DNA from: an uncultured Gemmatimonadales bacterium
GTDB taxonomy: Bacteria; Gemmatimonadota; Gemmatimonadetes; Gemmatimonadales; GWC2-71-9
DNA length: 64,000 nucleotides
Direction of reading: 5' to 3'
Assembly: GCA_963748815.1 (NCBI GenBank)
Contig: CAVVKJ010000010.1
Location: forward strand, 992,001-1,056,000
This document shows positions 2,940-22,720 of the stretch, piece by piece. The stretch's first letter is position 1; the number at the start of each line of letters is the position of its first letter. The translations under genes and the position numbers were made by a program. The notes under the pieces were generated by a model, which saw nothing but the letters and a program-made list of their open reading frames with translations, had not been told where the DNA came from and searched no databases.

Positions 2940-2945
2940 CGGGCG

Positions 2946-3365
2946 TCAGGCTGCGGGTGCTTCAGGCGTGGCCTCATAGCGCGAACCGCACTTGGCCAGC
3001 ACGTCGGTGGCGTGGAACACGCCATCGGCGCCGAGACGTCCCTCGACCACCACTTCGATGTCACTGGCGTCGGTGAAGGTGTCCGGCACGAGGCCCCGGT
3101 AGGTCACCGGGTAGACCTGCGTGCCGTCGGTCACCTGGAAGTCCACCGTCTGGGTGGCGGCGTCGCGCACGACCGACCCCGGCACCACGCGGGCGCCCAT
3201 CTTTACGCCGACGTTGTGGAAGGTGGGATCCGCGGAGGCCTTGGAGGCCAGCTCCGTCGGGGTGAGGAAGTAGACGCCCGTCTCCTTGACCCCCTGGAAC
3301 ATCAGGAGCCCGACGCTGCCGACGATCAGCACGGCGCCGAAGAGGAACTTGTGGCCAGGCTTCAT
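2946..3365 (-). CDS. ccmE: Heme chaperone CcmE, CxxxY variant
   Basis: N-terminal TM, YFLTPTEL, Y.G.VPDTF, VVEG, and LAKCGSRY in place of LAKHDExY. Start taken as ATG 3365. Confidence 0.93.
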   Translation of the reverse strand: MKPGHKFLFGAVLIVGSVGLLMFQGVKETGVYFLTPTELASKASADPTFHNVGVKMGARVVPGSVVRDAATQTVDFQVTDGTQVYPVTYRGLVPDTFTDASDIEVVVEGRLGADGVFHATDVLAKCGSRYEATPEAPAA

Positions 3366-3482
3366 GGTCCCGCTCCCTGCGAATAGTTGGATTCCGACTG
3401 GACTCCTCAACAATCGGCGGGCGGCCCCGCGGGAGCAAGCCCCGAACGGCCGCCTAAGGACTTCTTCACGCCGGCTTTACCC

Positions 3483-4286: not shown

Positions 4287-4376
4287 CGGGCAGAATCCAT
4301 GGTATGAGGGTGGAAGGCGGTCGGCACCAATCTAGCCAGACCGCCGCAATTGCGGGACCGGAATACTACTGATGGG

Positions 4377-5436
4377 TCAGCAGATGCGGGGGAGCTGGTC
4401 TCCCGGCAGCATATCGACGATGCGGGTGCCCCCGAGCCCCGTCCGGAGGACCACCATCCCCGGGTGTTCGGCGACCGCCGTCCCGGCGATGACCGCCTGC
4501 GCGCCGAGCGGGTGGCTGCGGAGCGCCGTGAGGGCGGCGTCCGCCGCAGCCTGGCTCGACGAACGCCACGAGCACCCCCTCATTCGCCACGTACATCACG
4601 TCCAGGCCGAGGAGATCGCAGACCGAGGCGACCGGCCCGGGGACGGGGAGGACGCCGTCCTCCAGCACCACGCCGACCTTCGAGGCGGCGGCAATTTCAT
4701 TCAGGGCGCTGGCCAGTCCACCCCGGGTCGGATCGCGCAGCACGTGGACCGACGACCCCACCGACACGCGGAGCAACTCCACGAGCGGCAGGAGGGTGGC
4801 GGCATCGCTCTCGATGGCGGCCTCGAAGGCAATCCCCTCGCGGGCTGCCATGATTGCCGTACCATGCGAACCGATCGGCCCGCTTACGAGCACGGCGTCC
4901 CCGGCACGCGCGCGGTCGGGACCGGGCCGGAAGGAGGGGTGTAACGTTCCGATACCGGTCGTATTGATATAGAGCTGGTCGGCCTTGCCCCGTTCCACGA
5001 CCTTGGTGTCTCCCGACACCACCGGGACCCCTGCCGCCCCTGCCGCCGCGGCCATCGAGGCGAGCACCCGATCGAGGAGGGCAAGGTCGAGACCCTCTTC
5101 CAGCACGAAGCCGACCGTCAGGCAGACGGGCCTCGCCCCGACCATGGCGAGGTCGTTCAGGGTGCCATGCACCGACAACGATCCGATGTTGCCGCCGGGA
5201 AACTCGACCGGGCTCACCACGAACGTGTCCGTGGAGACGGCGACCTGCTGCCCGTTGAGGTTGAGGACCGCCGCGTCGCCCAGTTGCTCGAGGATCGGGT
5301 TGCGGAGGTGCGGAAGAAAGCGCTCCTGCAGCAGCGCCGCGCTGAGCTTGCCGCCGGAACCGTGCCCGAGCTGGACGCGGTCGGTGGCCACGATGGGCAC
5401 CGGACAGGCGGGACCGCTCCCGATGGTGATGGTCAT
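4377..5436 (-). CDS. hypE: Hydrogenase maturation protein HypE (+1 frameshift near 4551)
   Basis: LGHGSGGK, STDTFVV, SGDTKVV, RDPTRGG, YVANEG. The conserved C-terminus GDQLPRIC lies in the adjacent frame (4377..4583). Confidence 0.95.
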
Positions 5437-5437
5437 T

Positions 5438-6547
5438 TCATCCCCCCGGGGCAACGGCCGCCCGATGGCGTCCGAAATTGTAGTACGCGGCGCACGCCCC
5501 TTCCGAGGAGACCATCGGGGCCCCGAGGGGACGCTCTGGGGTGCAAAGTGTGCCGAACGCCGGACACTCGTACGGCTTCAGCGTGCCGCGAAGCACTTCG
5601 CCGGCCCGGCACTCCGCCGGCTCGTCCACCTCGATGTCCTCCAGCCCGAACCGCAGCTCGGCGTCGAAGTCCGAGAACTCGGGCCGCAGGACCAGCCCGC
5701 TCTTCGGGATGGTGCCGACGCCGCGCCATTTCCGGTCGGCCAGCTCGAAGACCTGGCGCACCAGGTCCTGCGCCGGCGGCGTCCCGATCCGGCGGACGGC
5801 GCGGACATACTGGTTCTCCACCTCGTGCCGCCCCTCCTCGAGCTGGCGCACCGCGAGGGCAATCCCTTCCAGGATGTCGACCGGCTCGAACCCGGTGACG
5901 ACGATCGGCACCTTGAACCGCGCGGCGATGGGCTCGTACTCCTTCCATCCCATCACGCTGCAGACGTGACCCGCCGCCAGGAAGCCCTGCACCCGGTTCT
6001 CGGGGGAATCGAGGATGGCCACCATCGCGGGGGGCACCGTCACGTGCGACACGAGCACGCTGAAGTTGGGCACCCCGAGCTCCTTCGCGCGGAACACCGC
6101 CATGGCGTTGGCCGGCGCCGTCGTCTCGAAGCCCACCGCGAAGAACACCACCTGCTTGTCGGGATGCTTGACGGCCAGCTCGAGGGCGTCGAGGGGGGAG
6201 TACACCACCCGCACATTCCCGCCCCGCGCCCGGACCTGCTGGAGATCGCACTCGCTGCCGGGGACGCGGAGCATGTCGCCGAAGGAGGTGAACAGCACGT
6301 CGGGCCGCGCCGCGAGGGTCAGCGCCTTGTCGATTTGCTCCAGCGACGTGACGCAGACCGGGCAGCCGGGGCCGTGAATCATCTCGACGGCCGGGGCGAG
6401 AATTTCATCGAGCCCCTGCTTGACGATGGTATGGGTCTGGCCGCCGCACACCTCCATCAGGACCCAGCGCCGCGTGGCGGAATCGAGAATCTGGCGGACG
6501 AGGGCCCGCGCCAGGGCGGGATCCCGGTACTCGTTGAGGTATCTCAT
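5438..6547 (-). CDS. hypD: Hydrogenase maturation protein HypD
   Basis: [37 protein letters not shown]. Confidence 0.98.
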
Positions 6548-6798
6548 GGCGCCGCTCCCAGCTCCCCCTCGAGGAGGCTCATCTCGCGGAGCATTTCGTA
6601 CGTCCGCTTCGCTTCCTCCTCGTCCACGCGGGAAATCGCGAAGCCGACATGAACCACCACGTAGTCCCCCGCCTTCACCTCATCGGCCACGTAGGCCAGG
6701 CAGACGTCGCGGCGCACGCCCCCGAAGTCCACGGTGCCCATCGGCAGGCCGCGATCGCCGCGGATGTCCACGATCTGTCCAGGTATGCCGAGACACAT
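6544..6798 (-). CDS. hypC: Hydrogenase maturation chaperone HypC
   Basis: MCLGIPG...[13 protein letters not shown]. Confidence 0.98.
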
Positions 6799-6824
6799 GG
6801 AACGCCTCCTTCAGGTTCAGTCGG

Positions 6825-9111
6825 TCAACGCGCCAGCCGGGCGGCAGCCACCGCGGCCTGTCCAAAGCTGATGCCACCATCATTGGGGCTGAGGCGTCGC
6901 GGCCAGAGCACCGTCATCCCGAATCCCTGCAGCCGGCCCACGAGGGAGGTCAGCAGCCGCGCGTTCTGGAAGGTACCGCCGCCCAGGGTGACGGTGCGGA
7001 TGCCACTCTCCTCTGACACTCGTCGGATCACTTCGGCGGCGGCCCACGCGACGCTGGCGTGAAAATCGGCCGCGAGGTCGGCGATGTCGTCGCCGCGCTG
7101 ACGCCGTGAGCCAAGCACCGCCAGGAGATGCAAAGGATCGATGACCCAGGCCCCCTCGTCGGAGCGCTCCAGTCCCACCCGGATTTCGGAGGCGACCCGC
7201 CGCCCGGCGAGCGATTCAAGTTCCATCGCGGCCTGCCCCTCGTAGTCCGCCTTGAGGCGCAGCCCGAGCACGGCGGCCGCCGCATCGAAGAGCCGGCCCA
7301 TCGACGAGGCCCACGGCGCGTTGACGCCGCGGGTCGCCTGCAGCTCAGCCACCGCGCGTTCCGCCTCCTGGATGCCGTCGAGCGCCAGGGTGAACGCCGG
7401 CCCGAGGTGCGGATCGAGCATCAGGTAGCCGAGGGCGGCGCGCCAGGGGTTGCGGGCCGCGAGGTCGCCGCCCGGAAGCGGGGCAGGGCGCAGGTGGCCG
7501 ACGCGACGGAAGCCGAGCAGGTCGGCCTGCAGCACTTCCCCGCCCCAGACACCGCCATCGGCCCCGTAGCCCACGCCGTCGAAGGCGAGCGCGAGGACCG
7601 GGTCGGTGCGTCCGTGCTCCGCCATGACGGCGGCGGCGTGCGCGTGGTGGTGCTGGACCGGTTCGAGGACCCGAAGTCCCATTTCCTGCGCAATGCGGGT
7701 CGAGAAATATCCCGGATGCAGATCGTGGACGACGGCCTCGGGCGCCAGGCGGAAGAGCGCCTGGAACCGGGCGAGCGCCGACCGAAAGTGTTCGAGCGTC
7801 TCCAGGTTCTCGAGATCGCCGATGTGCTGACTGACCCAGGCCCGCGAGCCGTGCACGAGGGTGAAGGTGTTCTTCAGGTGCGGCCCGACCGCCAGGAACG
7901 GCAACGGGCTCGCGACCGGCAGGTCGAGGGGGAGGGGCGCGTACCCGCGCGCACGCCGCAACAGGATCGGGCCGATCTCGGTGGACCGCACGACCGAATC
8001 GTCGTACCGGGCCACGATCTCGCGGTCGTGGAGGAGAAAGCCGTCGGCGATCCCCTCCAGCCGGGCCAGCGCCTCCGCATTGCCGGTGGCGATCGGTTCC
8101 TCGCTCACGTTGCCGCTGGTCATCACGAGCGGGCGCCGCACCCGGTCGAGGAGGAGGTTATGCAGCGGCGTGGTCGGGAGCATGACGCCCACCCACGCGA
8201 GCCCGGGGGCGACGCCCTCTGCCAGCGGATCCCGATCGCCCCGCTCGAGGAGGACGATCGGACGCCTGGGTGAACGGAGCAGGATCGCCTCGTCCCGGCC
8301 CACGACCCCGAGCTTCCCCGCCTCGTCCAGCGTTCGGACCATGACGGCGAGCGGCTTCGCCTCGCGCCGCTTCCGCCGCCGGAGCTGGGCCACCGCCGAG
8401 CTGTTGGTGGCATCCACCGCGAGCTGGAAGCCGCCGACGCCCTTCAGCGCGACGACACCGCCCTTGAACAGTGTCAGCGCCGCCGCGGAGAGCGCCTCCT
8501 CCGACCCGGCGGTGTGGGAAACCCCGTCCGATTGGGCGTACCAGAGGCGCGGACCGCAGGCGGGGCAGCTGTTCGTCTCCGAGTGGTGCCGCCGGTCGCC
8601 GGGCGAGTCGTACTCGCGCTGGCAGGCGGCGCACTGCGTGAAGGCCGCCATGCTGGTGCGCGCACGATCGTACGGCATCGATTCGATGACGGTGAAGCGC
8701 GGGCCGCAGTCGGTGCAGGTGATGAACGGGTAGCCGTACCGGCGGTCGGCCGGATCCTTCAATTCTGCCTCGCAGGCCGCGCAGACCGCCACGTCGGGCG
8801 AGACCGGCTGCCGGCGGTCGGGCTGGTCCCGGCTGACCTCGATCGAAAACCCCGAGCAGCCCGTCACGGCGCGTGGCTCGACCGCGATCCGTTCGATCTG
8901 CGCGAGAGGTGGCGCCTCGAGCTCGAGCGCGGCCAGGAACTCCTGCAGCGCACCGGGAGCACCCTCGACCTCGATCAGAACTTCCCCGGAGGCGTTGAGG
9001 ACCCAGCCGTCGAGTTGGTGGCGCACGGCCAGCCGATGCACAAAGGGGCGGAAACCCACCCCCTGTACAACGCCAGTGACTCGGACGCGCGCGCCCCTCC
9101 CGGTCGTTCAG
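6825..9111 (-). CDS. hypF: Carbamoyltransferase HypF (probable CTG start with a +1 frameshift at 9094-9097)
   Basis: Acylphosphatase motif RVTGVVQGVGFRPFV, zinc fingers C..C/CTDCGPR, KGVGGF, QHHHAH, NDGGISFGQ. The motif extends upstream of the GTG at 9059. Confidence 0.95.
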
Positions 9112-9779
9112 ACCGATACGGGGCGCCGCGCCAGCTGCCGGAGAAAGTTGAACCACGTGTCGAGCCCCTCACCGGTAAGGGCGGAGGTCCGGAAGAACTC
9201 CAGCTCCGGATTCACCTCGCGCGCGAAGCCCAGCGCCTGCTCCACGTCGAACGGCACGTACGGGAGCAGGTCGACCTTGGTCAGGACGGCGTACCGGGCC
9301 TGCCGGAACACCTTGGGATACTTGAGCGGCTTGTCCTCGCCTTCGGTGACCGAGAAGAGCACCACCTTGGCGTCCTCCCCGAGGTCCCAGCTCGCGGGGC
9401 ACACCAGGTTGCCGACATTTTCCACGAAGAGCAGGTCGGTGGCGGCCAGGTCGATGGCCTCCAGGGCGGTGTCCACTTGTTTGGCGTCGAGGTGGCAGGC
9501 GCCGCCGGTCACCACCGCCTGCACCAGGCGCGTCGTGTGGCGGGCCAGGCGGTCGGCGTCGTTCTGGGTCTGGACATCGCCGGTGACCACGGCCATCCGG
9601 AGCTCCTCGCCGAGGGCGGCAAGGGTGCGCTCGAGGAGGAGCGTCTTTCCGGAGCCGGGGGAGGAGACGAAGTTGAGCGCTGGCACGCCGGCCGCGGCGA
9701 GCCGCGCCCGGACCGTCTCGGCGATCTCGTTGTTGCGAGCCATGACCGGCTCTCGGAGTTCAATGGTCCTGACGGTCAT
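9108..9779 (-). CDS. hypB: Nickel-insertion GTPase HypB
   Basis: SSPGSGKT, GACHLDA, ENVGNLVCPA, EGEDKPLKYP, TKVD. Confidence 0.97.
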   Translation of the reverse strand: MTVRTIELREPVMARNNEIAETVRARLAAAGVPALNFVSSPGSGKTLLLERTLAALGEELRMAVVTGDVQTQNDADRLARHTTRLVQAVVTGGACHLDAKQVDTALEAIDLAATDLLFVENVGNLVCPASWDLGEDAKVVLFSVTEGEDKPLKYPKVFRQARYAVLTKVDLLPYVPFDVEQALGFAREVNPELEFFRTSALTGEGLDTWFNFLRQLARRPVSV

Positions 9780-10020
9780 CGTCCAGCTCCAGGTAAGTGA
9801 CGCGGAGGACATCGCCCGCGCAGCGAGTCATCTCCGGACGCGCCTTGTGGAACGGCGGCGCCGCGAGGAGCGCCTCGAGGCAGAAGAGGAGATTGTCGGG
9901 CTCGAGGCCGGAGTCGTCGCCGACATCGAGCCCGACGGTGATGAGCTGCGGAAGTTCTGCCGGGGAGAGCCGCGCCTCCGCCAGGCGGCAGACCTCCACC
10001 GCCACGCTCATTTCATGCAT
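9760..10020 (-). CDS. hypA: Nickel metallochaperone HypA, short form lacking CxxC zinc motifs
   Basis: N-terminal MHEMS, VG..SGLEP..L.FC, C-terminal GDVLRVTYLEL; 86 aa; located before hypB. Confidence 0.85.
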   Translation of the reverse strand: MHEMSVAVEVCRLAEARLSPAELPQLITVGLDVGDDSGLEPDNLLFCLEALLAAPPFHKARPEMTRCAGDVLRVTYLELDDDRQDH

Positions 10021-10522
10021 GGGCCGGCGCGCGCGGCGAGACCCGGATGCCCCAATCCCTGAGTTGACCCGCCATCCGCTCCGGCAGGCGGTGCGTCCCC
10101 CGCTCCACCGCCGGTGTCATGTCGGACCGCATCTCGATCGTGACCGGCTCGACGCCGAGCGCCACGGTCATCTGCGGGAGGGTGCCCCGCACTTGCGCGA
10201 GGGTCAACACGTCGACGATATCGACCTGGTGCGCCGAGAGCTTCTGCCCCAGCACCCTGGGCAGGTCGGGTCCGTCCACGAAGACGTCCGCGCCGGGCGC
10301 GAGCCCGGCACGGATGGCATCGACCAGCAGCAGCTTCCCGGCGGACTCGATGTACGGGAGGAGGTTCATCCCCCAGGTTCCCCCGTCCATGAGCTCGACG
10401 CCCTCGCCCACCTCGAACTGGTCACGGAATCGCTCCAGCGCGATGATGCCGACGCCGTCGTCACCCATGATCGGGTTGCCGAGGCCCAGCACGAGGACCG
10501 GCCGGACACTACTCGTCCACAT
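10013..10522 (-). CDS. HyaD/HybD-family hydrogenase maturation endopeptidase
   Basis: VLGLGNPIMGDDGVG, DGGTWG, VDA, LSAHQ. Confidence 0.95.
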   Translation of the reverse strand: MWTSSVRPVLVLGLGNPIMGDDGVGIIALERFRDQFEVGEGVELMDGGTWGMNLLPYIESAGKLLLVDAIRAGLAPGADVFVDGPDLPRVLGQKLSAHQVDIVDVLTLAQVRGTLPQMTVALGVEPVTIEMRSDMTPAVERGTHRLPERMAGQLRDWGIRVSPRAPAHA

Positions 10523-11276
10523 AGTCGTGGTCGGCGCGAACGTAGTGACCACCGCTGACGATCCCCGACAGCCCGCCGCCGTGCTCGGTGATTTCCTTCC
10601 GCATCACGAGATAGATGTGGATGATGGGGAAGATGATGAACCACCAGACGCAGAGATGGTGCACGAGCCGGACCATCTGGATGCCGCCGACGGCGTTGAT
10701 CATCGGCTGCGTGAGGGAGTACCAGAATCCGCCAGGACTGGCCTGGCCGTACATCGAGAATCCGGTGACCACCACGACCACCGACACGACGTAGGTGAAG
10801 GTGTAGCTCAATTGCTGCAGCGGATTGTGCCCGATGTAGTGCACGCCCTCGCCCTCGCCGATCATCAGGTAGTACTTCACCTGCTTCCACAGGTTGACCC
10901 AGTCCCGCACGCGGATCGGGAAGAGCGCGGGCAGCCGCTCGAACTGGTTGCCCGCGAAGAGCCAGTACACCCGCACGAGGCCGGTCATCACAAACACGCC
11001 AGCGGCGATGTAGTGCGCCAGGCGGATGTAGCCCATCAGGTACTGCGGCGGCCCCCCGGTGGTCAGGAAATAGGGGCGGCCGATGTAGAGGCCGGTCACG
11101 ATCAGGACGACGATCGCGAGGGCCGCGATCCAGTGCATGGCGCGGAGCGGGGCGCCCCACGGTTCCACCCAACGGTAGTTTCCACTGGGGGGCGCGAACC
11201 GCGCCCCGAGGGGGAAGAGCGGCGAGTCGGCCATTGGCGGCGGCGCGGGGCCGTGCCGCGGAGTGGATGTCGTCAT
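10509..11276 (-). CDS. cybH: Ni/Fe-hydrogenase b-type cytochrome subunit (HyaC/HupC type)
   Basis: RAMHW, RLAHY, GHNPLQQLSY, RLVHH, IHIY; four TM helices. Confidence 0.93.
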   Translation of the reverse strand: MTTSTPRHGPAPPPMADSPLFPLGARFAPPSGNYRWVEPWGAPLRAMHWIAALAIVVLIVTGLYIGRPYFLTTGGPPQYLMGYIRLAHYIAAGVFVMTGLVRVYWLFAGNQFERLPALFPIRVRDWVNLWKQVKYYLMIGEGEGVHYIGHNPLQQLSYTFTYVVSVVVVVTGFSMYGQASPGGFWYSLTQPMINAVGGIQMVRLVHHLCVWWFIIFPIIHIYLVMRKEITEHGGGLSGIVSGGHYVRADHDYVDE

Positions 11277-12988
11277 TGGACCTTGACCTCCACGACCGGA
11301 TGTCCGTCGGCATCGAGCACGTGCACGCCGCACGACATGCAGGGATCAAAGGAGTGAATGGTGCGCAGGATCTCGAGTGGTTGCTCCGGCCGCACCAAGG
11401 GGTGGTGGTCCATGAGCGCCGCCTCGTACGGGCCGGGCACGCCCTGCTCGTCCCTCGGCGAGCAGTTCCAGGTGCTCGGCACGACGCACTGATACCGCGA
11501 AATCTTGCCGTCCTCGATCTGGACCCAGTGGCCGAGGGCGCCACGCGCGGCGTCGAGGTAGCCGTAACCCTGGGCCGACTTCGGCCAGGTTTCCGGATCC
11601 CACTTGTCGCCGTTGAAGGTGCGGGTGTCGCCGTTCTTGATGCGGTTCACCAGCTGGCCGTACCAGTTCTGCATCTGGTTGGCCAGCAGGACCGTCTCCA
11701 TGCAGCGGGCGCCGACGCGGCCGAGCGTGGAGAAGAGGGCGGCAGGTGGCACATCGAGCCGGGTCAGGAGTTCGGTGACGATTTCCTTGATGTCCTGCTG
11801 CCCGGCGGCGTAGCCGACCAGCATCCGCGAGAGAGGACCGACCTCCATGGGGCGCCCGTCGTACCGCGGCGACTTCATCCAGGTGTACTTCTTCTCGTCC
11901 TGCAGGTAGGTCCACGGCGTCGGCGGGCCGGTGTACTTCGGCACCGTCTCCCCTTCCCACGGGTGGAGCGAAGCGGCGTCGCCGCCGGAGTACTCGTACC
12001 AGGAACTGGTGATGCCTTCCGTCACCAGCGTGTGGTCGTAGGGGTAGACCTTCGAGAGGTCCCGGTTCAGGACGATCCCGCGCGGGAAGTAGAGCGAATC
12101 GAGGTCGTTGCTGTCCACCGAGGCGTACTCGCCCACGGTCAGGTAGTTGCCGGTGCCGCCGCCGATGGCGCCCCAGTCCTTGTAGAACCCGGCGATGGCC
12201 TGCACGTCGGGCCAGTACACCTCGTCGACGAAGCGCTTGGCGCGGGTGATCATCGCCTGCACATCGGCGAGCCGCGCCGCGTTGATGGTGGCGGTGTCGT
12301 TGAGGTTGATGGCGCTGGCCATGCCGCCGACGAGGAAATTCGGGTGCGGATTCTTGCCGCCGAAGATGGTGTGGAGCCGGATGACGTCCTTCTGCCAGTC
12401 GAGCGCCTCGAGGTAATGCGCCACCGCCAGCAGGTTGACCTCCGGCGGGAGCTTGTAGGCGGGGTGGCCCCAGTACCCGTTGGTGAAGATGCCGAGCTGG
12501 CCGCCGGCGGCGAAGGTCTTGATCCGGTTCTGCACTTCCGCGAAGTAGGTGGCGGAGTTGTTCGGCCAGGGGGAGATGCTCTTGGCGATGGCGGCGGTCT
12601 TGGCCGGATCGGCGCTGAGCGAGCTGATGATGTCCACCCAGTCGAGCGCGTGCAGGTGGTAGAAGTGGATGACGTGGTCCTGGATGGTCTGCATCCCGTG
12701 GACCAGGTTGCGGATGAGGGTGGCGTTGGGCGGGATGGTGATGCCCAGCGCGTCCTCCACCGCACGACAGGAGGCCACGGCGTGCACGACCGTGCAGACG
12801 CCACAGATGCGCTGGGTGAAGGCCCAGGCGTCGCGCGGGTCGCGCCCCGTCATGATGGTCTCGATGCCGCGGAACTGCGTGGACGATGCCCAGGCCGTGG
12901 AGATCATCCCGTTCTCGGCCTGCGCCTCGATCCGGAGGTGTCCCTCGATCCGGGTGATGGGGTCTACGACCACTTTAGTCCTGGCCAT
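11273..12988 (-). CDS. Group 1 [NiFe]-hydrogenase large subunit
   Basis: DPITRIEGHL, L1 QRICGVCTVVH, L2 SFDPCMSCGVH plus a cleavable tail VLDADGHPVVEVKVQ. Start ATG 12988 after an AGGGAGG RBS. Confidence 0.97.
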   Translation of the reverse strand: MARTKVVVDPITRIEGHLRIEAQAENGMISTAWASSTQFRGIETIMTGRDPRDAWAFTQRICGVCTVVHAVASCRAVEDALGITIPPNATLIRNLVHGMQTIQDHVIHFYHLHALDWVDIISSLSADPAKTAAIAKSISPWPNNSATYFAEVQNRIKTFAAGGQLGIFTNGYWGHPAYKLPPEVNLLAVAHYLEALDWQKDVIRLHTIFGGKNPHPNFLVGGMASAINLNDTATINAARLADVQAMITRAKRFVDEVYWPDVQAIAGFYKDWGAIGGGTGNYLTVGEYASVDSNDLDSLYFPRGIVLNRDLSKVYPYDHTLVTEGITSSWYEYSGGDAASLHPWEGETVPKYTGPPTPWTYLQDEKKYTWMKSPRYDGRPMEVGPLSRMLVGYAAGQQDIKEIVTELLTRLDVPPAALFSTLGRVGARCMETVLLANQMQNWYGQLVNRIKNGDTRTFNGDKWDPETWPKSAQGYGYLDAARGALGHWVQIEDGKISRYQCVVPSTWNCSPRDEQGVPGPYEAALMDHHPLVRPEQPLEILRTIHSFDPCMSCGVHVLDADGHPVVEVKVQ

Positions 12989-14111
12989 CGTGACCTCCCT
13001 CCGCCGCCGCAGCCGCCTTCTTGCGCGAGCGAATCTGGTGTACGGTTGTGGCGGCGGCATGGGCGGCCACGCCGGCAATGGCACCGGCGGCCAACGCGGC
13101 GCCGATGGTGTCCGCCGTCTGCTCGATGCCGATTCCGGCCACGTTGGGGAGCCGGGTGTAGAACGGGGTCATCGTGTCCCAGAACCCGCGCTCGGTGCAT
13201 CCGATGCAGGGATGCCCGGCGCCGATGGGCCAACTGGTCTTCATGTTCCACATGAAGATCGGACAGGGGCTGAAGGTCGCCGGACCCTTGCACCCCACCT
13301 TATACAGGCACCACCCCTTGCGGGCGGCTTCGTCGTCAAACTCCTCCACGTACTGGCCGGCGTCGAAGTTGGCGCGGCGCGGGCACTGGTCGTGAATCCG
13401 CGCGCCGTAGGCGAAGAGCGGACGACCGTCGGCGTCGAGTTCCGGGAGCCCGCCGAAGGTCAGGTAGTGCACCAGCGTCGCGGTCACCGTCTCGGCGATC
13501 GGGGGGCACCCGGTCAGGTGGACCACCGGCTTGTCCTTGATGATCTCGGCGATGCCCACCGCCCCGGTGGGGTTCGGCTTGGCGGCCTGGACGCTGCCCC
13601 AATGGGCGCAGGCGCCCACGCCGATGACGGCCTTGGCGCCCGCGGCGGCCTCGATCAGCACCTCCTTGGCGGTCCGGCCACCGATCACGGTATAGATGCC
13701 GTCCTCCGCCAGCGGCACCGATCCGGTCACCACCAGGAGGTACTCCCCCATGTTGGCCTTCATCGAGGCGTGCAGCGCATCCTCCGCCGCCGTGCCCGAT
13801 GCCGCCATGAGGGTGTGGGAGTAGTCGAGGGAGACGATGTTGAGGATCAGCTCGCCGATGGAGGGATCGGCGCTGCGCAGGACACTCTCGACGCAGCCGG
13901 TGCATTCCTGCAGCTGGATCCAGATGACCACCGGCCGTTTGACGCCTTCCAGCGCGGCGGCCACGCGCGGGGCGGCCATTTCGGTCAGGCCGAGGAGGAC
14001 GGCCATCTGGCCGCAGAACTCGAGGAACTCGCGGCGCGACACGCCGCTCGCCTCGAGATGCTCTCCAAGGGTCTGGTCCTTGGCCCAGGGGAACTGCGTC
14101 GGAAAGAACAT
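12975..14111 (-). CDS. Group 1 [NiFe]-hydrogenase small subunit with Tat signal and C-terminal anchor
   Basis: SRREFLEFC Tat motif, ECTGC, GCPP, HDQCPRR, CLYKVGCKGP, GHPCIGC, C-terminal TM with His. Confidence 0.97.
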   Translation of the reverse strand: MFFPTQFPWAKDQTLGEHLEASGVSRREFLEFCGQMAVLLGLTEMAAPRVAAALEGVKRPVVIWIQLQECTGCVESVLRSADPSIGELILNIVSLDYSHTLMAASGTAAEDALHASMKANMGEYLLVVTGSVPLAEDGIYTVIGGRTAKEVLIEAAAGAKAVIGVGACAHWGSVQAAKPNPTGAVGIAEIIKDKPVVHLTGCPPIAETVTATLVHYLTFGGLPELDADGRPLFAYGARIHDQCPRRANFDAGQYVEEFDDEAARKGWCLYKVGCKGPATFSPCPIFMWNMKTSWPIGAGHPCIGCTERGFWDTMTPFYTRLPNVAGIGIEQTADTIGAALAAGAIAGVAAHAAATTVHQIRSRKKAAAAAEGGHDGQD

Positions 14112-14496
14112 CGTGTCGACCTCCGGTCCACTGGTGCGGGATGGACCGGCGGCGGGAGGAGCCCGCCGTCGGGGGGAATCCAACTGCCGCAACATCTGTG
14201 GCGGCCGATAAATGCGGTCTGAATAGTTTCTGAAGATGCGTTCAGTATTTCTACGTACTGACACGAAGGAGTTCCGGGCCCATCACCAGGAGTCGCCTCT
14301 TGAAGAGCTCATCAAAGTGGTCGCGTGGCGCTGCGGATCCGGTGATTGCCGTGCCCGAACCCAAGATTCTCCAAAGAGTTAGTGAAGGAACCATGAACTT
14401 TGTAACGAGACCCCCGTATTGCCACGGAGACCCATTGCGCGAAAGCCCGGATAGGGGAAAATTGCCTGCGTCCTCCCTCACTCAAGGGTCATTCTT
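14112..14496. promoter_or_regulatory. Divergent promoter region between the hydrogenase and multiheme cytochrome operons
   Basis: 385-bp region, visibly more AT-rich, between head-to-head operons; contains the near-palindrome TTGAAGAGCTCATCAA (14300-14315). Confidence 0.7.
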
Positions 14497-16180
14497 ATGA
14501 CGTCTCGCACCGTTCGCTCCCGCTCCTTCGCCGCCATCCTCGGCACCCTGGCGCTCTTCGTACTGGCCGGCTGCACCGAGACCAACACCGAGTATGTCGA
14601 GCGGCCGCAGTTCAACCCGCCGCCGGACTCGGTCAACGGCTACATGGGCTACTACAACGCCGCGACGAAGCAGACCACCTGCGGCAACTGCCACTCGGGG
14701 TATCAGGGCGAGTGGGTCACGACCGCGCACGCCGACGCATACGACGGGCTGGTCAACTCCGGCCACGCCCAGTCGTACTGCTTCGGCTGTCATACCGTGA
14801 GCGACCTCGGCAACACCGGCTCCGCCTCGGGCGAGCCGGGCGGGTGGGGCGTCGTCGAGAGCCCGGCCTATCACGACGTGCAGTGCGAGAGCTGCCACGG
14901 CCCGGGCTACGACCACGTGTCGAACCCGACCGACGACAACCATCCGCTCGCGCGCGCCGGCCTCAAGGACACCGTGGCCAGCTGCGGCGGTTGCCACAGC
15001 GGCGAGCACGAGCCCTTCACGGAGCAGTGGTCGCAGACCGGCCACGCCGACTCCACGGCCAACGCCAGCCCGGCCGGCAACGCGGCCGGCGGGTGCACGG
15101 CCTGCCACGAAGGTCGGACCGCCATGGCCCGATTCAACGGCGGCAAGCCGAGCACCTACATTGAGCTCGATTCTGTCGGCGAGATCACCACGCTGCCGCC
15201 GGCCACCTGCGCCGTCTGCCACGACCCGCACGGGAGCCCCTACCAGGCACAGCTGCGGCTGCCGGTGGATGCCCCCGACCTCACCGCCAACCTCTGCATG
15301 AACTGCCACAACCGGGGCACGGCGCCGCCGAACAACTTCTCCAATTCGACCGCGACCAGCACCAAGCGCGGCGCGCACGCGTCGCAGGGGCCGATCGTGC
15401 TCGGGCAGGGCGCCGGATACATCCCACGGTACTTCTCCTACGACACCGTCCGGGCGTACACGTCGCACGCCTCCATCAACAACCCGCGGCTTTGCGCCGG
15501 CTGCCACGTCAACTCCTTCGAAGTGACCGACGCGAACGGGTTCGTGTTCCAGTCGGTCGGACACCTCTTCTCGCCCGATCCCTGCCTCGACGCCAGTGGC
15601 GTCCCGACTACCGACAACAGCTTGCGCCTACCTGCCCAGTACCACCCGCAACTGGACCGGCTGTCTCGCCGCCGGCTGCCATGCCAGCGCCGACGTGGCG
15701 GCCACCGCGCTCACCAACAGCCGAAACCTGGTGGCCAGCCTCGCCGACCAGCTCTGGAACGACGTGAACCCGACGCTCAACAACGGCGGTGAGCCGTACA
15801 TGGATGCGGGGGACACTGGCGCGCTGGTTTACCTGCTCTTCACAGCCGGCAATCCGTATACGATGATCAATGCCACGGATAGCGTGCAGGCCTTCAACGC
15901 CAATGACAACATCGTCTCCCCGGCGGAAGGCGCCCTCTTCAACATCATGATGTTCGCCGAGGACCTGTACGATCACAACGACGGCTCCTACGGCGTCCAC
16001 AATCCCTTCTACTACCAGTCGCTGCTCGCGGCCAGCATCGCCGAAGTCAACGACGTCTACAATGCGTTCCTCCCGAGTCCGCCGAGCCCCGCCATCAAGG
16101 CGCTCATGGACAAGGCGCTGAGCCGCCCGGGGGTCACCTACAATCCACCGTCACGCACGAAGTTGAGCGCCGCACGTTAG
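14497..16180 (+). CDS. Multiheme c-type cytochrome lipoprotein, 9 heme motifs (+1 frameshift at 15622/15623)
   Basis: Lipobox VLAG-C; 8 CxxCH in 14497..15620; CLAAGCH and DGSYGVHNPFY in the next frame (15596..16180). Removing one T joins the two into about 560 aa. Confidence 0.88.
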
Positions 16181-16184
16181 CCGC

Positions 16185-18185
16185 GTGATCGCCCAGACAC
16201 TGCACTCGCTCTATCCGACCATGGCTCCCGGCACCACGCCGGGAGCCATGGTCGATTCTTTGCAGGCCGCCCAGGCCGACAGCGGACTGGTGCCCACGCC
16301 GCTGCCGGACCCGGTGGTCAACCTGGTCCAGTGGATCTTCCAGCGCCCGGGCTGGGTCATGGTCTCGGGGATCGTGATTGGCGCCGTCGTCGGCGTCGTG
16401 GCCGCCTGGTTCCTCTGGAAGCACCGCAGGGACATCTGGACCTGGCTCGCCACCCGGAGCCGCGGCACCAAGCTCCTGATGGTCTCGACCGCGGGTGTGT
16501 TCCTCCTCGCCGCCGGCACGGTGGGCTACAAGGTCAACCACTACATGGAACACGACAACGACTTCTGTCGCGGTTGCCATGTGTTCATTCCGTACGGCCA
16601 GCCGTTCGTCCGGCCCGATACCGGCACCTACCTGATCGTCAACCAGCTCGAGGGGAAGCACGACACCCTCGAGTGCCACGACTGCCACCTCCCCGACAAG
16701 ATCGCCCAGGCGCAGGAGCTGATCCTGTGGATGGTGGACCGGCCCGACAAGGTGCCGGAACACGCCAAGGTGCCGCCCACGGTCTGCAAGAGCTGCCACG
16801 AATCGGGGGAGGCCAAGGAAACCTGGCAGGAAATCGTCACCACCGCAGGGCACCGGGTCCACTTCGAGTCTGATTCGCTGAAGGACAAGAATCTGGAGTG
16901 CCTGACTTGCCACGCGCGGTCGGCGCACCGCTTCGAACCGGTGGACTCCACCTGCGCCCAGCAGGGATGTCACCTGACCGACGAGGTGACCATCAAGCTC
17001 GGCAAGATGACCGACGCGGTGGGGCTCCACTGTGCCGTCTGCCACGAGTTCACCGCCGCAGTGCCCAGACTGGCCACTGTTGATTCAGCCTCCGGGACCC
17101 TGGTCCCCGGGGACAACCAGTGCTTCAGCTGCCACGAAATGCAGCAGCGGCTCCAGGACTTCGACCCGACGCATGACCCGCATAACGGGAAGTGCGGGAT
17201 GTGCCACAACCCGCACACCAACGTCCAGCCGGACGACGCCCTCAAGAGCTGCGCGACAGCCGCCTGCCACGGCGACTGGCGCAAGGTCGAGTTCCACACC
17301 GGGGCGGCGCACCGCAAGGGGATCGAGGACTGCGAAACGTGCCACACGCCGCATGCCGCACGGGTGGACGCCAGCGCCTGCGCCAGTTGCCACGAACGGG
17401 TGCGCGGATCGGCCACCGGAAAGGCGGCGGGACGAAAGCCTCCCCTGCCCTTCGACACCACCAAGGCGCTCCGGTCGAGTTCGGCGCAGCCAGACCCGAC
17501 CAGCCCCCACGGAAAGGGCGATGCGCCGCCGGATGACGACCCTCCGGCGGCGTTGGTCTCTCAGGCCCCCGCCGACAGCTTCGAGCACGCCCGGCACAAG
17601 GACCTGAGCTGCATCACCTGCCACACGACCTCCAACCCGACCTCGACCCTGAACTTTGCCGCGCCGCGCGGGTGCCAGATCTGTCATCACACCGCCACCG
17701 CGAAGCGCGATTGCGCCGTCTGTCACACCCCCGCCGAGCAGGGCCCCGAGACGGTGCGCGTCACGGTCACCGTGCCGGAACATGCCCCCCGGCCCCGGGA
17801 GGTGTCGTTCGAGCACGCCAAGCACACCGAGGTGGCGTGCAAGGAGTGCCACGCCACGCCGGTGACGCTCGCCCCCGAGGCGCCGGTCAAGGGGTGCATC
17901 TCCTGCCACGACCAGCACCACACCGAGGCGAAGGACTGCGCCGCCTGTCACGCCGGCGGCGACATCGACACCCCCCATGCGCCCCCCGCCGTCGCCCATG
18001 AAGGGTGCGACGCCTGTCATACTCCGGCGCGTATCGCGCAGCTGACGCCGTCGCGGCCGTTCTGCCTGACCTGCCACCAGCCGCAGCGAGCCGATCACTA
18101 CCCGACGAAGGAGTGCACGCCGTGCCACCTCGACGCGACGCCGGCCGAATGGCGGTCGCGACTGGTGGGTGGGAGGGGCATGTGA
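16185..18185 (+). CDS. Membrane-anchored 20-heme cytochrome with NapC/NirT-like N-terminal domain
   Basis: Two N-terminal hydrophobic helices, then YMEHDNDFCRGCH; 18 CxxCH plus 2 Cx4CH counted. Confidence 0.88.
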   Translation: MIAQTLHSLYPTMAPGTTPGAMVDSLQAAQADSGLVPTPLPDPVVNLVQWIFQRPGWVMVSGIVIGAVVGVVAAWFLWKHRRDIWTWLATRSRGTKLLMVSTAGVFLLAAGTVGYKVNHYMEHDNDFCRGCHVFIPYGQPFVRPDTGTYLIVNQLEGKHDTLECHDCHLPDKIAQAQELILWMVDRPDKVPEHAKVPPTVCKSCHESGEAKETWQEIVTTAGHRVHFESDSLKDKNLECLTCHARSAHRFEPVDSTCAQQGCHLTDEVTIKLGKMTDAVGLHCAVCHEFTAAVPRLATVDSASGTLVPGDNQCFSCHEMQQRLQDFDPTHDPHNGKCGMCHNPHTNVQPDDALKSCATAACHGDWRKVEFHTGAAHRKGIEDCETCHTPHAARVDASACASCHERVRGSATGKAAGRKPPLPFDTTKALRSSSAQPDPTSPHGKGDAPPDDDPPAALVSQAPADSFEHARHKDLSCITCHTTSNPTSTLNFAAPRGCQICHHTATAKRDCAVCHTPAEQGPETVRVTVTVPEHAPRPREVSFEHAKHTEVACKECHATPVTLAPEAPVKGCISCHDQHHTEAKDCAACHAGGDIDTPHAPPAVAHEGCDACHTPARIAQLTPSRPFCLTCHQPQRADHYPTKECTPCHLDATPAEWRSRLVGGRGM

Positions 18186-19672
18186 ACCTGCGGAGCGCCG
18201 CCGCCGCGGTCGTGCTGGTGGTTTTCCTCCCGGCCGCCGGTTCGGCCCAGGGCTACAACCTTCGCCTCACGGGCGGCATCCAGGGGGTGAGCTTCCGCGG
18301 CTACACCGCGGACAGCATCCCCATCGACAGCGTGGTCACCACCGGCAACGGAAGCCTCGAGACCCCCACCGGCTACGCCGTGTCCTGCACCTCGGGCGTG
18401 GCCTACTGCAACTACTGGGTCCCGGGTCCCATCAACACCACTGCCCCCGCCGTGGCGCAGGCCGCGCTGACGATGTGGGGCCTCGGCCTCCCCGGCCTGC
18501 GCGTGCAGGTCAACGGCTACGCCACCACCGACTTCAACACCGCCGCCTCCTGGCCGGGCACCTCGCCCAACTTCCAGCTCATCGAGGGCTACGCCGAATA
18601 CGCCGCCCCCGCCTGGACGCTCGTCGCCGGGCGCAAGCTCATTGCCGGGCGCCTGGGGGCGTACGGCTTCGACGGCGGGCAACTCACGGGACGGCTCCCG
18701 AGTGCCGGGCTGGCGCTCTCGGGCTATGTCGGCTGGGGGCTGGCGCAGGGCTCGAACCTCCTCTTCACCTCCAGCGAGGCGAATCCCCAGGAGGACTACC
18801 AGCCGGCGGAGAGCCCGATCGTTGCCGGCTTGATCGGCACCTGGAATTCGCCGCACGCTGAACTGAGCGCCGAATACCGGAGGGAAGTGGACCAGACCAC
18901 CGACTACTTCGGGTCCGAGCGGATCGCCGCGTCGGCGACCCTCCGACCCTACGGAAGCTGGAGTCTGGTCGGCGGCGCGATTTACGACATGGCCAGCGGG
19001 CTGTGGGGCAGCGCAGACGCCGCTCTCCGCTTCGCCACCCCCAAGCTTGGCGTGGTGGCCGGGTATCGGCGCTACGCCCCGTTCTATGAGCTCTGGACCG
19101 TCTGGGGCGCCTTCAGTCCCGTACCGTACAACGCCCTCTACGGGTCCGTGTCGTACCAGGCCACGAAGCGGCTCCAGCTCCGGCTCCGCGGGGAGACCTA
19201 CCAGTTCGAGGATTCCGAGACCCTGACGCCGCTGGTTTCCATCGGCGACTCGGGATGGCGGTATTCGCTCGGTGGGACCTACCAGATTTCGAACGCCTGG
19301 CAGGCCCAACTCGGGTATGAGAACGAGTTCGGCACCGGCGCCTCGTCGAGCGGCTGGGACGGCAACGTCACCTTCTCGCCCAACGGCAAGTACTCCATCA
19401 TGGTGTACGGGAATTCGCTGTCACGACCGCTGGAATACCGCTGGGACCAGTCGGTGGTCCTCGTGTACGGGATGCAGGCCTCCGTGGTGGCGCGGGACAA
19501 CGTGAGCGTCGCCTTCACGATGGCCCGGTACGATGAAAACCGGGAACGTCCCGACGCCGCATCGTTCGAGTGGGACCAGATCCGCTTCGGGGCCAAGGTC
19601 GTCATGACCTTCAGCTCGGCCGACCGGCTGCCCCTCCCCAAGGCCATCACCAACCGACCGGCGGGGTACTGA
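18182..19672 (+). CDS. Putative outer-membrane beta-barrel (porin of a porin-cytochrome complex)
   Basis: GTG 18182 overlaps the previous stop (GTGA); signal peptide ending AGSA-Q; amphipathic strands rich in Tyr/Trp/Gly; no heme motifs; 496 aa; lies between two cytochromes. Confidence 0.75.
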   Translation: MNLRSAAAAVVLVVFLPAAGSAQGYNLRLTGGIQGVSFRGYTADSIPIDSVVTTGNGSLETPTGYAVSCTSGVAYCNYWVPGPINTTAPAVAQAALTMWGLGLPGLRVQVNGYATTDFNTAASWPGTSPNFQLIEGYAEYAAPAWTLVAGRKLIAGRLGAYGFDGGQLTGRLPSAGLALSGYVGWGLAQGSNLLFTSSEANPQEDYQPAESPIVAGLIGTWNSPHAELSAEYRREVDQTTDYFGSERIAASATLRPYGSWSLVGGAIYDMASGLWGSADAALRFATPKLGVVAGYRRYAPFYELWTVWGAFSPVPYNALYGSVSYQATKRLQLRLRGETYQFEDSETLTPLVSIGDSGWRYSLGGTYQISNAWQAQLGYENEFGTGASSSGWDGNVTFSPNGKYSIMVYGNSLSRPLEYRWDQSVVLVYGMQASVVARDNVSVAFTMARYDENRERPDAASFEWDQIRFGAKVVMTFSSADRLPLPKAITNRPAGY

Positions 19673-19673
19673 A

Positions 19674-21113
19674 ATGCGTCGCGTACTCCTGCCCCTGATA
19701 CTGGCGCTCGCCGCGCTCTCGGCCCCCGCGGCCGCGCAGCAGGGTGACCATTTCGACCACCCGCAGCACGCCAAGGTCTTCCCGACCTGCACCGCCTGTC
19801 ATGCCGGCGCTCTCAATCCCTCCCGGCCGCTCCTCCCCTCCGGGCAATCGTGCGCCAGCTGCCACGACGGCACCATCGAGCGCCGGGTGGACTGGAAGGC
19901 GCCCGCGCCGACGGGAACCAACCTTCGATTCACGCACGCCGAGCACAGGCAGGAGGTGCTCGCCAAGGCAGGAGGCGACTCCACGCTCACCTGCCAGGCC
20001 TGCCACATTCCCGAGGGCAGCGCCTGGATGACGGTGGAGCCGGCGGTCATGCCGCAGTGCCTGGCCTGTCACGGCGTCAAGGCGGCGCACCTCGCCGCCC
20101 CCGACACCGCGTGCGCCACCTGCCACCTCACGCTGGCGCAGGCGACCACGCTGACCTCGGCGCAGGTGAAGGAGTTCCCGGCACCGCCGTCGCATGAGGC
20201 GGCCGGGTTCATGGGCGCCGACGGGCACGGCGCGCAGGCGCAGGCCGGCACCGGGCCGACGACCTACCTCGTGGCACCAAGCTGCGCCACCTGCCACGCG
20301 CAGGAGTTCTGCATTACCTGTCACGTGAACGCCCCGGAAACACCGACCATCCAGGCGCTGGCCCAGGACCCCCGATCGCTCGCCATTCCGGCGCGTCTCG
20401 AGGAACCCGCCACGCACGAGCAGCCCAATTTCGTGACGACCCACGGCAAGTCGGCGCGCAAGAGTGCCGCCGCCTGCCAGACCTGTCACACCCAGGAGAG
20501 CTGCCTCTCCTGTCACATCACGCCGCCGCGGTCGGTCGCCACGCTCTACGCGAGCGGTCCCGGTCGGGGGGCGGGCGCCCAGGTGGAGCGGAGCCGTCCG
20601 GCCAGCCACATGGCCGACTTCAGCACCATCCACTCGCCAGTGGCCAACAGCAACCCGCAGTCGTGCGAGGGGTGCCACGCGCGCCCGCAGTGCCTCGATT
20701 GCCATCGCGGGACGCCCGACCGCACGCCGCAGTACCACCCGCAGACCTTCCTCGAGCGGCATCCGGCGGCGGCGTACGCGCGCGAGACCAACTGCAGCGA
20801 CTGCCACAACCCCGGCGCCTTCTGCCAGACCTGTCACGTACAGTCGGGCCTCGGCAGCCCCAAGGGAGCGCTCCAGGCGGGCTACCATGACGCCTACCCG
20901 GCCTTCCTGCTCAACCACGGCCAGGCGGCCCGCCAGAGCCTCGAAAGCTGCACCTCGTGTCACGTCGAGAAGGACTGCCTGAGCTGCCACTCGGCGCTCT
21001 ACGGCCGCGGCTTCAACCCGCACGGCCCCGGGTTCGACCCCGAGCAGCTCCGCTCCAAGAACCCGCAGATGTGCACTGTATGTCACGGACAGCGGGTGCC
21101 GAGTTCGAAGTGA
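19674..21113 (+). CDS. Periplasmic 16-heme c-type cytochrome
   Basis: Sec signal ending AAA-Q; 16 CxxCH; repeated H...F...H...CxxCH-x4/5-CxxCH modules. Confidence 0.9.
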   Translation: MRRVLLPLILALAALSAPAAAQQGDHFDHPQHAKVFPTCTACHAGALNPSRPLLPSGQSCASCHDGTIERRVDWKAPAPTGTNLRFTHAEHRQEVLAKAGGDSTLTCQACHIPEGSAWMTVEPAVMPQCLACHGVKAAHLAAPDTACATCHLTLAQATTLTSAQVKEFPAPPSHEAAGFMGADGHGAQAQAGTGPTTYLVAPSCATCHAQEFCITCHVNAPETPTIQALAQDPRSLAIPARLEEPATHEQPNFVTTHGKSARKSAAACQTCHTQESCLSCHITPPRSVATLYASGPGRGAGAQVERSRPASHMADFSTIHSPVANSNPQSCEGCHARPQCLDCHRGTPDRTPQYHPQTFLERHPAAAYARETNCSDCHNPGAFCQTCHVQSGLGSPKGALQAGYHDAYPAFLLNHGQAARQSLESCTSCHVEKDCLSCHSALYGRGFNPHGPGFDPEQLRSKNPQMCTVCHGQRVPSSK

Positions 21114-21250: not shown

Positions 21251-21703
21251 CTACTTGATCAGAATCTTGCTGGTGACCGCCGACGGCACCTTCGGCAGAT
21301 GCACGAGCAGCACTCCATCCTGATAGGTTGCCGTGACGTTCTCCGCCATTGCGGGCGCGGGAAGCCGGATCATGCGGTGGAACTCGCCCCACTCCCGCTC
21401 GGCGTGCAGGTAGCGCTCGGTCGGTTCCGCCCCCGGGAATTCACGGCGACCGCTCAGCGTCAGCAGGGTCCCGACCAGCGTGATGTCGAGATTTTCCCGG
21501 TGGGCGCCGGGCACGTCGAGGCGGACGAGGTACTCCGCGTCGGTCTCGAGCAGATCGAAGGGAGGGAGCCACGCCGCAGGCTCCGCCTCACGGGTCCGCA
21601 GCAGGGCCTCGGGGGCGAAGGTGTTGTGGAAAAGCCGGTCGAACACCTGGTCGATGTCGTTGCGCACCTTGGCCATGACGGGTGCGGCCTTCACGATTCT
21701 CAT
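21251..21703 (-). CDS. Hsp20/alpha-crystallin small heat shock protein
   Basis: P.FDLLET, DVPG, ER.WGEF.R.IRLP, ATYQDGVL.V.LPK; AGGAGG RBS before ATG 21703. Confidence 0.95.
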   Translation of the reverse strand: MRIVKAAPVMAKVRNDIDQVFDRLFHNTFAPEALLRTREAEPAAWLPPFDLLETDAEYLVRLDVPGAHRENLDITLVGTLLTLSGRREFPGAEPTERYLHAEREWGEFHRMIRLPAPAMAENVTATYQDGVLLVHLPKVPSAVTSKILIK

Positions 21704-21731
21704 GATTCCTCCTGATAGAGACCGTGCCACC

Positions 21732-22690: not shown

Positions 22691-22720
22691 GCGTTGCCGC
22701 GCTCCACGAAGCAAGGAAAT

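Follow-up and report, generated by a model that had tools for sequence, protein, structure and literature searches.

The window analysed here is a 64,000-nucleotide stretch from an uncultured Gemmatimonadales bacterium (contig CAVVKJ010000010.1 of assembly GCA_963748815.1), in which positions 14497 to 21113 hold four tightly coupled genes encoding multiheme cytochromes and a predicted outer-membrane beta-barrel. Together they very probably form a heme conduit crossing the cell envelope, whichever way electrons travel through it; that the direction is outward, from menaquinol to extracellular acceptors, is proposed with moderate confidence. The four genes are:

14497..16180, plus strand: gene 1, nonaheme lipoprotein cytochrome of about 560 aa with 8 CxxCH and 1 CX4CH; predicted surface terminal module, OmhA/OcwA-related and OmcB-like
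16185..18185, plus strand: gene 2, 666 aa with 2 membrane helices, 18 CxxCH and 2 CX4CH; NapC/NrfH-like domain (about 16446-16990), then middle hemes, then a C-terminal octaheme module; predicted quinol interface and periplasmic wire
18182..19672, plus strand: gene 3, predicted outer-membrane beta-barrel of 496 aa, about 22 strands, plug-less, without a curated family
19674..21113, plus strand: gene 4, secreted 16-heme cytochrome (16 CxxCH) made up of an N-terminal pentaheme part, five paired-CxxCH repeats and a terminal heme

These coordinates, the common strand and the gaps of 4, -4 and 1 nt between genes 1/2, 2/3 and 3/4 hold as an earlier note on this DNA had given them, and recounting again yields 20 heme motifs in gene 2, 16 in gene 4 and none in gene 3. 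The 45 hemes which that note ascribed to the operon are reached with atypical motifs included: 42 are canonical CxxCH and three are CX4CH, the Cys and His of the latter being invariant across the homologue alignments. Chance does not account for this richness, since 2000 shufflings of each protein gave at most 2 CxxCH, as against the 8, 18 and 16 observed in genes 1, 2 and 4. Gene 2 has hydrophobic helices at residues 58-76 and 97-115, and the sole hydrophobic segment of genes 3 and 4 is an N-terminal signal-like stretch. A longer open reading frame (ORF) for gene 3, starting at 18005, was rejected; both the signal-like stretch and the homologue alignments begin at 18182. A 17-pair GC-rich inverted repeat at 16216-16254, inside the 5' end of gene 2 and flagged as terminator-like, may influence transcript processing between genes 1 and 2.

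The four genes also co-occur in relatives from different families, as the earlier note had expected, and its placement of the host in Gemmatimonadota agrees with the names of the 80 nearest relatives, 78 of which are Gemmatimonadales or related (two carry other labels). The loci compared are the 80 best matches plus 20 picked from distant families, a sample neither random nor independent. Gene 4 lies directly after the barrel in 90/90 loci with at least 1.5 kb downstream (99 loci were examined; L087, where the barrel is fused into the upstream frame, was dropped), gene 1 lies upstream of the barrel in 60 of the 62 loci with at least 9 kb upstream, and a window-like gene 2 is present in 45 of these 62. 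The barrel itself was found in 30/41 relatives and, by profile, in 134 of 301 sampled Gemmatimonadota genomes (88/125 in the host's own family, 8/12 families); 442 barrel stretches were confirmed in a species-representative collection, and one distant homologue is labelled Ca. Eisenbacteria.

Gene 2 and its slot

Gene 2 is likely the quinol interface of the operon, a putative quinol oxidase, and the best argument for this role comes from what occupies its slot. Upstream architecture in the 62 loci is of type A, with a window-like gene 2, in 45 cases, of type B, with a larger NapC module, in 11, and of other kinds in 6. In loci with a replaced gene 2, known kinds of quinone interface mostly fill the slot or a position beside it: type B has a PetB-like cytochrome b (PF00033, 164 bits) preceded by a Rieske-like protein, along with a 9-heme protein, a 22-heme NapC protein, and 11- or 19-heme proteins with an FdnI-like cytochrome b, as in CbcL. 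The 22-heme NapC/NirT protein matches PF03264 above cut-off and NrfH 2J7A at an expectation value (E) of 9e-10; in the latter alignment Met49 has its counterpart, and a Lys falls where Lys82 is placed by extrapolation; the heme-1 Met is present in 11/11 type-B NapC proteins, in which the quinol-site Lys, at its extrapolated position, is invariant. Architecture labels change 13 times on an 82-leaf FastTree phylogeny of the barrel (a count made with no shuffled control and no clade test), and this repeated exchange of quinone-interface modules in one slot supports a quinone-interface role for gene 2, the slot appearing to behave as an exchangeable unit. The type-B Rieske-like protein (L064:2695-3210) has an altered cluster motif and sub-threshold Rieske matches; in L075 and L091, gene 4 is followed by a canonical Rieske gene.

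Judged by sequence comparison, gene 2 starts with a NapC/NrfH-type domain. This N-terminal domain matches TIGR03153 in 45/45 homologues, all below cut-off (window E 2e-7), and its profile aligns with the type-B NapC domain (97%, E 5e-11). The top structural match of the gene 2 model among 48,161 chains is NrfH (Z 4.6, root-mean-square deviation (rmsd) 6.5 A, 120 aligned; VIA-align), and the predicted local distance difference test (pLDDT) of the model is mostly 70-95 in the first 130 residues. Features conserved in the type-A proteins include an invariant Trp besides the membrane helix and the first hemes; a Glu/Gln is kept in 38/45, and in 21/50 of these proteins the heme-1 motif is CxxCHxM. 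The membrane-anchored quinol-type domain proposed in the earlier note is thus borne out by matches that are all sub-cut-off or weak.

Several observations weigh against gene 2 as a quinol oxidase or against the outward conduit as a whole. Window gene 2 scores 31 against TIGR03153, whose cut-off is 134; PF03264 (NapC/NirT) gave no match to it at E 0.01, and the N-domain profile found no PDB chain at E 0.01. The Z of 4.6 with NrfH lies in the range that the tool calls common, and the model as a whole is poor (pLDDT 54). At heme 1 the window protein has CxxCHxF, the Met being absent as in 29/50 type-A proteins, and no Lys is conserved in the type-A helix after heme 2, the maximum being 11/45 at any position. 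Finally, gene 2 and the type-B NapC module are both missing from 6/62 loci, and L130, L148 and L038 have no inner-membrane cytochrome partner nearby. The Met of the CxxCHxM heme-1 motif is universal in NrfH and optional in NapC and CymA. As to the Lys, the profile alignment of types A and B stops before the quinol-site position (NrfH Lys82, CymA Lys91), where the residue is described as kept in CymA, NapC and NrfH (PMC3279761; ImoA preprint).

The C-terminal octaheme module of gene 2 is seen again as the last part of the type-B NapC protein, and L131, L141 and L143 have it as a gene of its own immediately ahead of the barrel; this recurrence suggests a docking module.

Barrel, secreted cytochrome and lipoprotein

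Structure prediction indicates that gene 3 is likely a plug-less outer-membrane beta-barrel of a new family. The model, built from 114 sequences, has pLDDT 85 and a predicted template modelling score (pTM) of 0.76; 23 strand elements are listed, which are read as about 22 barrel strands plus one long extension. Residues 1-456 align to the barrel domains of TonB-dependent receptors and ushers (VIA-align; Z 18.6-16 and rmsd 4-5 A over 280-380 aligned positions); MtrB, ranked 19th (Z 16.0, 357 aligned at rmsd 4.7), is tied with many others, and the nearest named Atlas clusters are barrels (0.91). This whole-length alignment and the quality of the model agree with the barrel fold that the earlier note had predicted for 18182..19672. 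A TonB-dependent transporter was rejected on the lack of a plug domain in the model and of any family match. Gene 3 gave no NCBIfam match and one sub-threshold Pfam match, and its profile matched no PDB sequence at E 1; for MtrB/PioB, there was no Pfam or NCBIfam match to gene 3 and no Pfam match in 36 distant homologues. Since the barrel has no curated family, homology screens based on MtrB would miss it.

The window form of gene 4, with 16 hemes, is shared by 83/97 homologous ORFs, and 9- and 12-heme forms occur. Its N-terminal pentaheme part resembles ActA/c3 cytochromes; in the 9- and 12-heme relatives this part is shortened or absent and the C-terminal paired-CxxCH repeats are kept, for which reason we infer that the repeats may be the barrel-bound part. 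For the 16 hemes there are 15 extra conserved His and 1 Met, which fits a fully ligated, closed wire. The gene 4 sequence had no match in the PDB, and its C-terminal profile found nothing there better than E > 0.06. The same profile gave 707 matches; those named among the best 120 are Gemmatimonadota, one NC10 label and generic names, with no Geobacter among them. The repeat may resemble that of OmaB.

Gene 1 had been described earlier as a single lipobox cytochrome with nine motifs. The motifs and the lipobox stand (a lipobox-like N-terminal pattern is found in 49/51 nine-heme homologues), but in the window the gene is split into two ORFs, 14497-15792 with 8 CxxCH and 15596-16180, in another frame, with 1 CX4CH. 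The break is probably a one-base assembly error, because two Logan contigs, from two runs of the same study, are one base shorter at 15620 (X2: 460 bp with 1 gap and 1 other letter relative to the window; X3: 796 bp, 18 other letters and 7 gaps; the contigs of runs X1 and X4 do not cover this position), because GC content at third codon positions switches frame at about 15620 (0.93 before; after it, 0.59 in the old frame vs 0.86 in the new), and because the gene is a single ORF in 53/60 related loci. The absent base and the single ORFs also led to the rejection of a true pseudogene. Gene 1 is the least conserved of the four genes and is frameshifted in the same-genus loci L021, L026, L030, L032 and L034, at varying places, with genes 2-4 intact in L021, L026 and L030; possibly, strain diversity in a variable surface protein defeats assembly polishing. 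In the same genome a heme-copper oxidase subunit I gene is spread over several frames (C10:962106-963319), which is a further sign of indel errors in the assembly.

The sequence relationships of gene 1 place it with OcwA and OmhA in the NrfA superfamily, and it appears OmcB-like rather than MtrC-like. The best PDB matches of its profile are 6QVM (E 8e-16), which we take to be OmhA of Carboxydothermus ferrireducens from its 681-aa length, equal to that of the OmhA gene, and 6I5B (OcwA; E 3e-14); lower down come 6R2Q_A (a chain of the Mtr complex), then c554 and HAO, and weakly octaheme nitrite reductase. Similarity to 6QVM and 6I5B covers the heme domain and is weak in the C-terminal helical stretch. 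An Atlas cluster named OmcB has a similarity of 0.93 (193/256 features shared), which is a language-model similarity to an automatically named cluster and not an alignment. The catalytic-heme motif CxxCK is absent (0/48 gene 1 proteins), so that an identity as NrfA was rejected; there are 8 conserved extra His for 9 hemes, and the HH pair occurs in only 17/48. OcwA is described as a nonaheme cell-surface reductase with an NrfA/HAO-like fold that also reduces nitrite and hydroxylamine (PMC6703420), and OmhA as the principal cytochrome linked to ferrihydrite on the surface of C. ferrireducens (PMC7829351). In the loci that lack gene 2 (L130, L136, L138, L148, L038), gene 1 still lies directly before the barrel; it therefore tracks the barrel and not gene 2. 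The lipoprotein gene is tandemly duplicated in L038, L130, L148 and L118, the first three of which are without gene 2.

Proposed electron path, alternatives and known systems

What is shown above (the genes and their heme motifs, the synteny, the exchange of modules and the kinship of the sequences), together with the predicted folds, leads us to infer a path with the following topology, contacts, direction and acceptor. Menaquinone would be reduced by catabolic dehydrogenases or, in the host's own genus, by a divergently encoded uptake hydrogenase; the quinol would be oxidised by the membrane-anchored NapC/NrfH-like domain of gene 2, whose 16 fused hemes would cross the periplasm without a soluble shuttle and end in the C-terminal octaheme module. 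That module would hand electrons to gene 4, the C-terminal repeat hemes of which would thread the barrel lumen, and the surface lipoprotein of gene 1 would reduce humic quinones or oxides of Fe(III) or Mn(IV). Of the 9 ORFs with at least two CxxCH (ORFs of at least 80 aa in the 86%-complete genome), none encodes a small tri- or tetraheme shuttle, and the futalosine menaquinone family PF02621 occurs twice in the genome. MtrA is reported to extend about 100 A for ten hemes, and the periplasm to measure 170-235 A (PMC3279761; PMC11492766); as arithmetic, not as a model, the 36 hemes of genes 2 and 4 could span the envelope.

One alternative, which we regard as unlikely, is that type-A gene 2 is an anchored wire or electron store without quinol oxidase activity, fed by another complex such as alternative complex III, the hydrogenase cytochrome b or a bc-like module, in which case the operon would not be self-sufficient. 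The missing heme-1 Met and conserved Lys fit such a protein, as do an ActA-like pentaheme gene in the genome and the loci (L141, L143, L144, L039, L044) that keep gene 2 and add Rieske/PetB genes; yet CymA, which lacks Met49 and Asp89, is still described as a quinol oxidase (PMC3279761), the heme-1 Met is reported missing in several quinone-interacting proteins, CymA included (ImoA preprint), and the conserved helix, first hemes, Glu/Gln and Trp of the type-A proteins speak against it as well.

The host genome carries heme-copper oxidases besides the ActA-like gene; the host is therefore not an obligate metal reducer, and this tells against outward flow. The oxidases would suit a conduit that runs inward, from reduced humics, Fe(II) or partner cells to menaquinone for aerobic respiration, and the best-matching read sets are biofilter and activated-sludge metagenomes. 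We nevertheless consider inward flow quite improbable: gene 1 has its closest solved relatives among the terminal reductases found in Fe(III) reducers, the low potential of menaquinone makes Fe(II) a poor donor, and the uptake hydrogenase recurs within 17/62 loci (11 label changes on the barrel tree), a linkage that, being partial, also counts against its role in the outward path. CymA- and CbcL-type proteins are found in both reducers and oxidisers (PMC6295460), but the outer lipoprotein is described as often absent from the clusters of Fe(II) oxidisers (PMC4245776) and is present here in 60/62 loci. More improbable still is that genes 1 and 2 are an NrfA/NrfH-like periplasmic pair reducing or detoxifying a soluble N, S or Se compound, with the barrel as a solute channel. 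The fold of OcwA and its turnover of nitrite and hydroxylamine (PMC6703420) point that way, and the turnover is a further point against metal or humic acceptors; with them go the weak gene 1 matches to HAO, c554 and octaheme nitrite reductase, the 8 extra His for 9 hemes, which make an open site possible, a match of the type-B cytochrome b to ExtP below cut-off, and the link of ExtI, a proposed solute channel, to selenite and tellurite (PMC5877670). Against such a pair stand the missing CxxCK, the infrequent HH pair, the gene 1 copies that adjoin the barrel where gene 2 is absent, and the 90/90 linkage to gene 4, since a solute pore needs no invariant 9-16-heme partner.

An outward conduit would, by analogy, work like the Geobacter Pcc complexes (OmbB-OmaB-OmcB, ExtABCD) or MtrCAB. 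With the former it shares a porin, a periplasmic multiheme and a lipoprotein multiheme cytochrome, a barrel of about 22 strands (published range 18-22) and atypical heme motifs in the outer cytochrome (PMC4245776), and gene 1 has the feature similarity to the OmcB-named cluster given above; the window operon differs in its 16-heme periplasmic partner (5-14 published), in the added fused 20-heme NapC-type protein and in gene order. The logic and a NapC-family quinol interface are shared with MtrCAB/CymA, Rhodoferax mtrABC-cymA-mtrH and Sideroxydans mtoABD-imoA, in the last two of which the interface is co-encoded with the conduit (PMC6295460; ImoA preprint). There is weak MtrA-type similarity in the window cytochromes (TIGR03508 scores of 32-34 for genes 1 and 2 vs a cut-off of 192, and no match for gene 4). 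The difference from MtrCAB which the earlier note had seen in the heme counts is real and goes further: there are 9, 20 and 16 hemes and no decahemes, about 22 strands vs 26-28 (28 predicted for MtrB, PMC4245776), an OcwA/OmhA-like outer cytochrome, and, in place of a separate tetraheme protein, a NapC domain to which 16 more hemes are fused. Membership in the MtrCAB/MtoAB/PioAB group was rejected, there being no MtrB/PioB-family barrel, no decaheme MtrA/DmsE and no MtrC/OmcA.

OcwA (Thermincola potens) and OmhA are the best PDB matches of gene 1, and OcwA too is a nonaheme; they are described from Gram-positive surfaces without a porin (PMC7829351), whereas gene 1 encodes a diderm lipoprotein beside a barrel, and it lacks the conserved HH pair. 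Geobacter extHIJKLMNOPQS and CbcL/ImcH resemble the type-B relatives in clustering a porin and large cytochromes with Rieske and cytochrome b proteins; the type-A operon of the window has neither of the latter two, and ExtI, a phosphate-porin-like protein, is of another kind than the window barrel. PCC3 and PCC4 (He et al. 2017) are likewise genome-predicted conduits with a co-encoded inner-membrane protein, but that protein has five helices, and PCC3 has much larger porins (PMC5566968); no five-helix HX13H protein is encoded among the four window genes, all of whose products have at most 2 hydrophobic helices. The peat EET1-4 clusters share OcwA-like cytochromes in porin clusters but come from Acidobacteriota and Verrucomicrobiota and have 8-13 hemes (bioRxiv 10.64898/2026.05.27.727921).

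The earlier note went too far in holding that the quinol oxidase of such conduits is as a rule encoded elsewhere, and in treating a co-encoded quinone interface as novel. Rhodoferax ferrireducens has cymA and mtrH beside mtrABC, and cymA is clustered with Mtr/Mto-type genes in Ferrimonas, Sideroxydans and Azoarcus (PMC6295460); PCC3/PCC4 carry their inner-membrane protein (PMC5566968), in extHIJKLMNOPQS a porin is accompanied by Rieske and cytochrome b proteins and by 10/12-heme cytochromes (PMC5877670), and further cases are known from PMC4245776 and PMC13264449.

Neighbouring genes, host and meaning

The surroundings of the operon in the window include:

912..3413, minus strand: genes like ccmE and ccmF for cytochrome c maturation, which follow the hydrogenase genes on this strand
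4369..10552, minus strand: hydrogenase maturation genes (protease, hypB, hypF, hypD, hypE)
10509..14111, minus strand: uptake [NiFe]-hydrogenase, membrane-bound and divergent from the operon; it may supply menaquinone with electrons
10509-11276, minus strand: hydrogenase cytochrome b
11273-12988, minus strand: hydrogenase large subunit
12975-14111, minus strand: hydrogenase small subunit
14112..14496, no strand: divergent intergenic region with conserved blocks in 9/9 aligned same-genus loci
21251-21733, minus strand, and 22694-23233, plus strand: Hsp20 genes
21779-22690, plus strand: MenA-like UbiA prenyltransferase, between the two Hsp20 genes

Among the conserved intergenic blocks are a TGAAG-N4-CTTCA palindrome, a GC-rich inverted repeat close to where the hydrogenase starts and, some 60-100 nt upstream of gene 1, a further block. 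They are candidate promoters or operators, with candidate shared regulation of hydrogenase and gene 1; a promoter scan found no sigma-70 consensus site in 14112-14496. Linkage of menA to the operon is confined to the host's own genus, and many loci from various genera carry Hsp20 genes shortly after the operon, as a possible folding aid or by chance synteny. An unassigned 267-aa gene with zinc-ribbon-like Cys pairs stands beside ccmF/ccmE after the hyp genes (912-4286, minus strand), and another cytochrome c assembly gene is on contig C5 of the same genome. That contig also has a second porin-cytochrome cluster (about 264400-273900; L150:6380-15893), PCC3-like in appearance, with a divergent FAD/4Fe-4S oxidoreductase, a beta-rich protein of 798 aa, repeat cytochromes with 23 and 30 hemes and a small membrane protein; in L072 and L119, similar genes for 23 and 19 hemes come shortly after the operon. 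Farther along the window, Rad50/SbcC-like and Mre11/SbcD-like genes occupy 53518-58760, with fragmented ORFs beside them.

The new features are the fusion behind the 20-heme inner-membrane wire, the family of the barrel and its wide distribution across the phylum. No description of the operon was found in the literature on Gemmatimonadota and on conduits, a search outside which most subscription journals and supplements lay; an 'mto-like' system is mentioned in passing for a Gemmatimonas metagenome-assembled genome (PMC6137239).

More tentatively, and as a picture that we think could well be wrong, the operon may represent a phylum-wide, shuttle-free wire, in which the 20-heme protein would oxidise menaquinol and bridge directly to a new porin-cytochrome family with an OcwA/OmhA-type cap, while an exchangeable inner cassette (NapC, bc-like or CbcL-like) would tune the potential and, in several lineages, H2 uptake would feed into the wire. 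Gemmatimonadota, of which few members are cultured, abound in soils and sediments and are regarded as aerobic heterotrophs; if the picture is true, the phylum would be a major overlooked group respiring minerals and humics, and a conduit gene in 134/301 genomes would add it to iron, manganese and humic redox cycling. The electron path across the periplasm from CymA to MtrA is described as an open point (PMC3279761), and a NapC domain with 16 fused hemes would be a direct, testable answer to how the periplasm is crossed. A single barrel family whose inner-membrane cassettes have been swapped in nature would likewise provide a comparative series for energy conservation in extracellular respiration.

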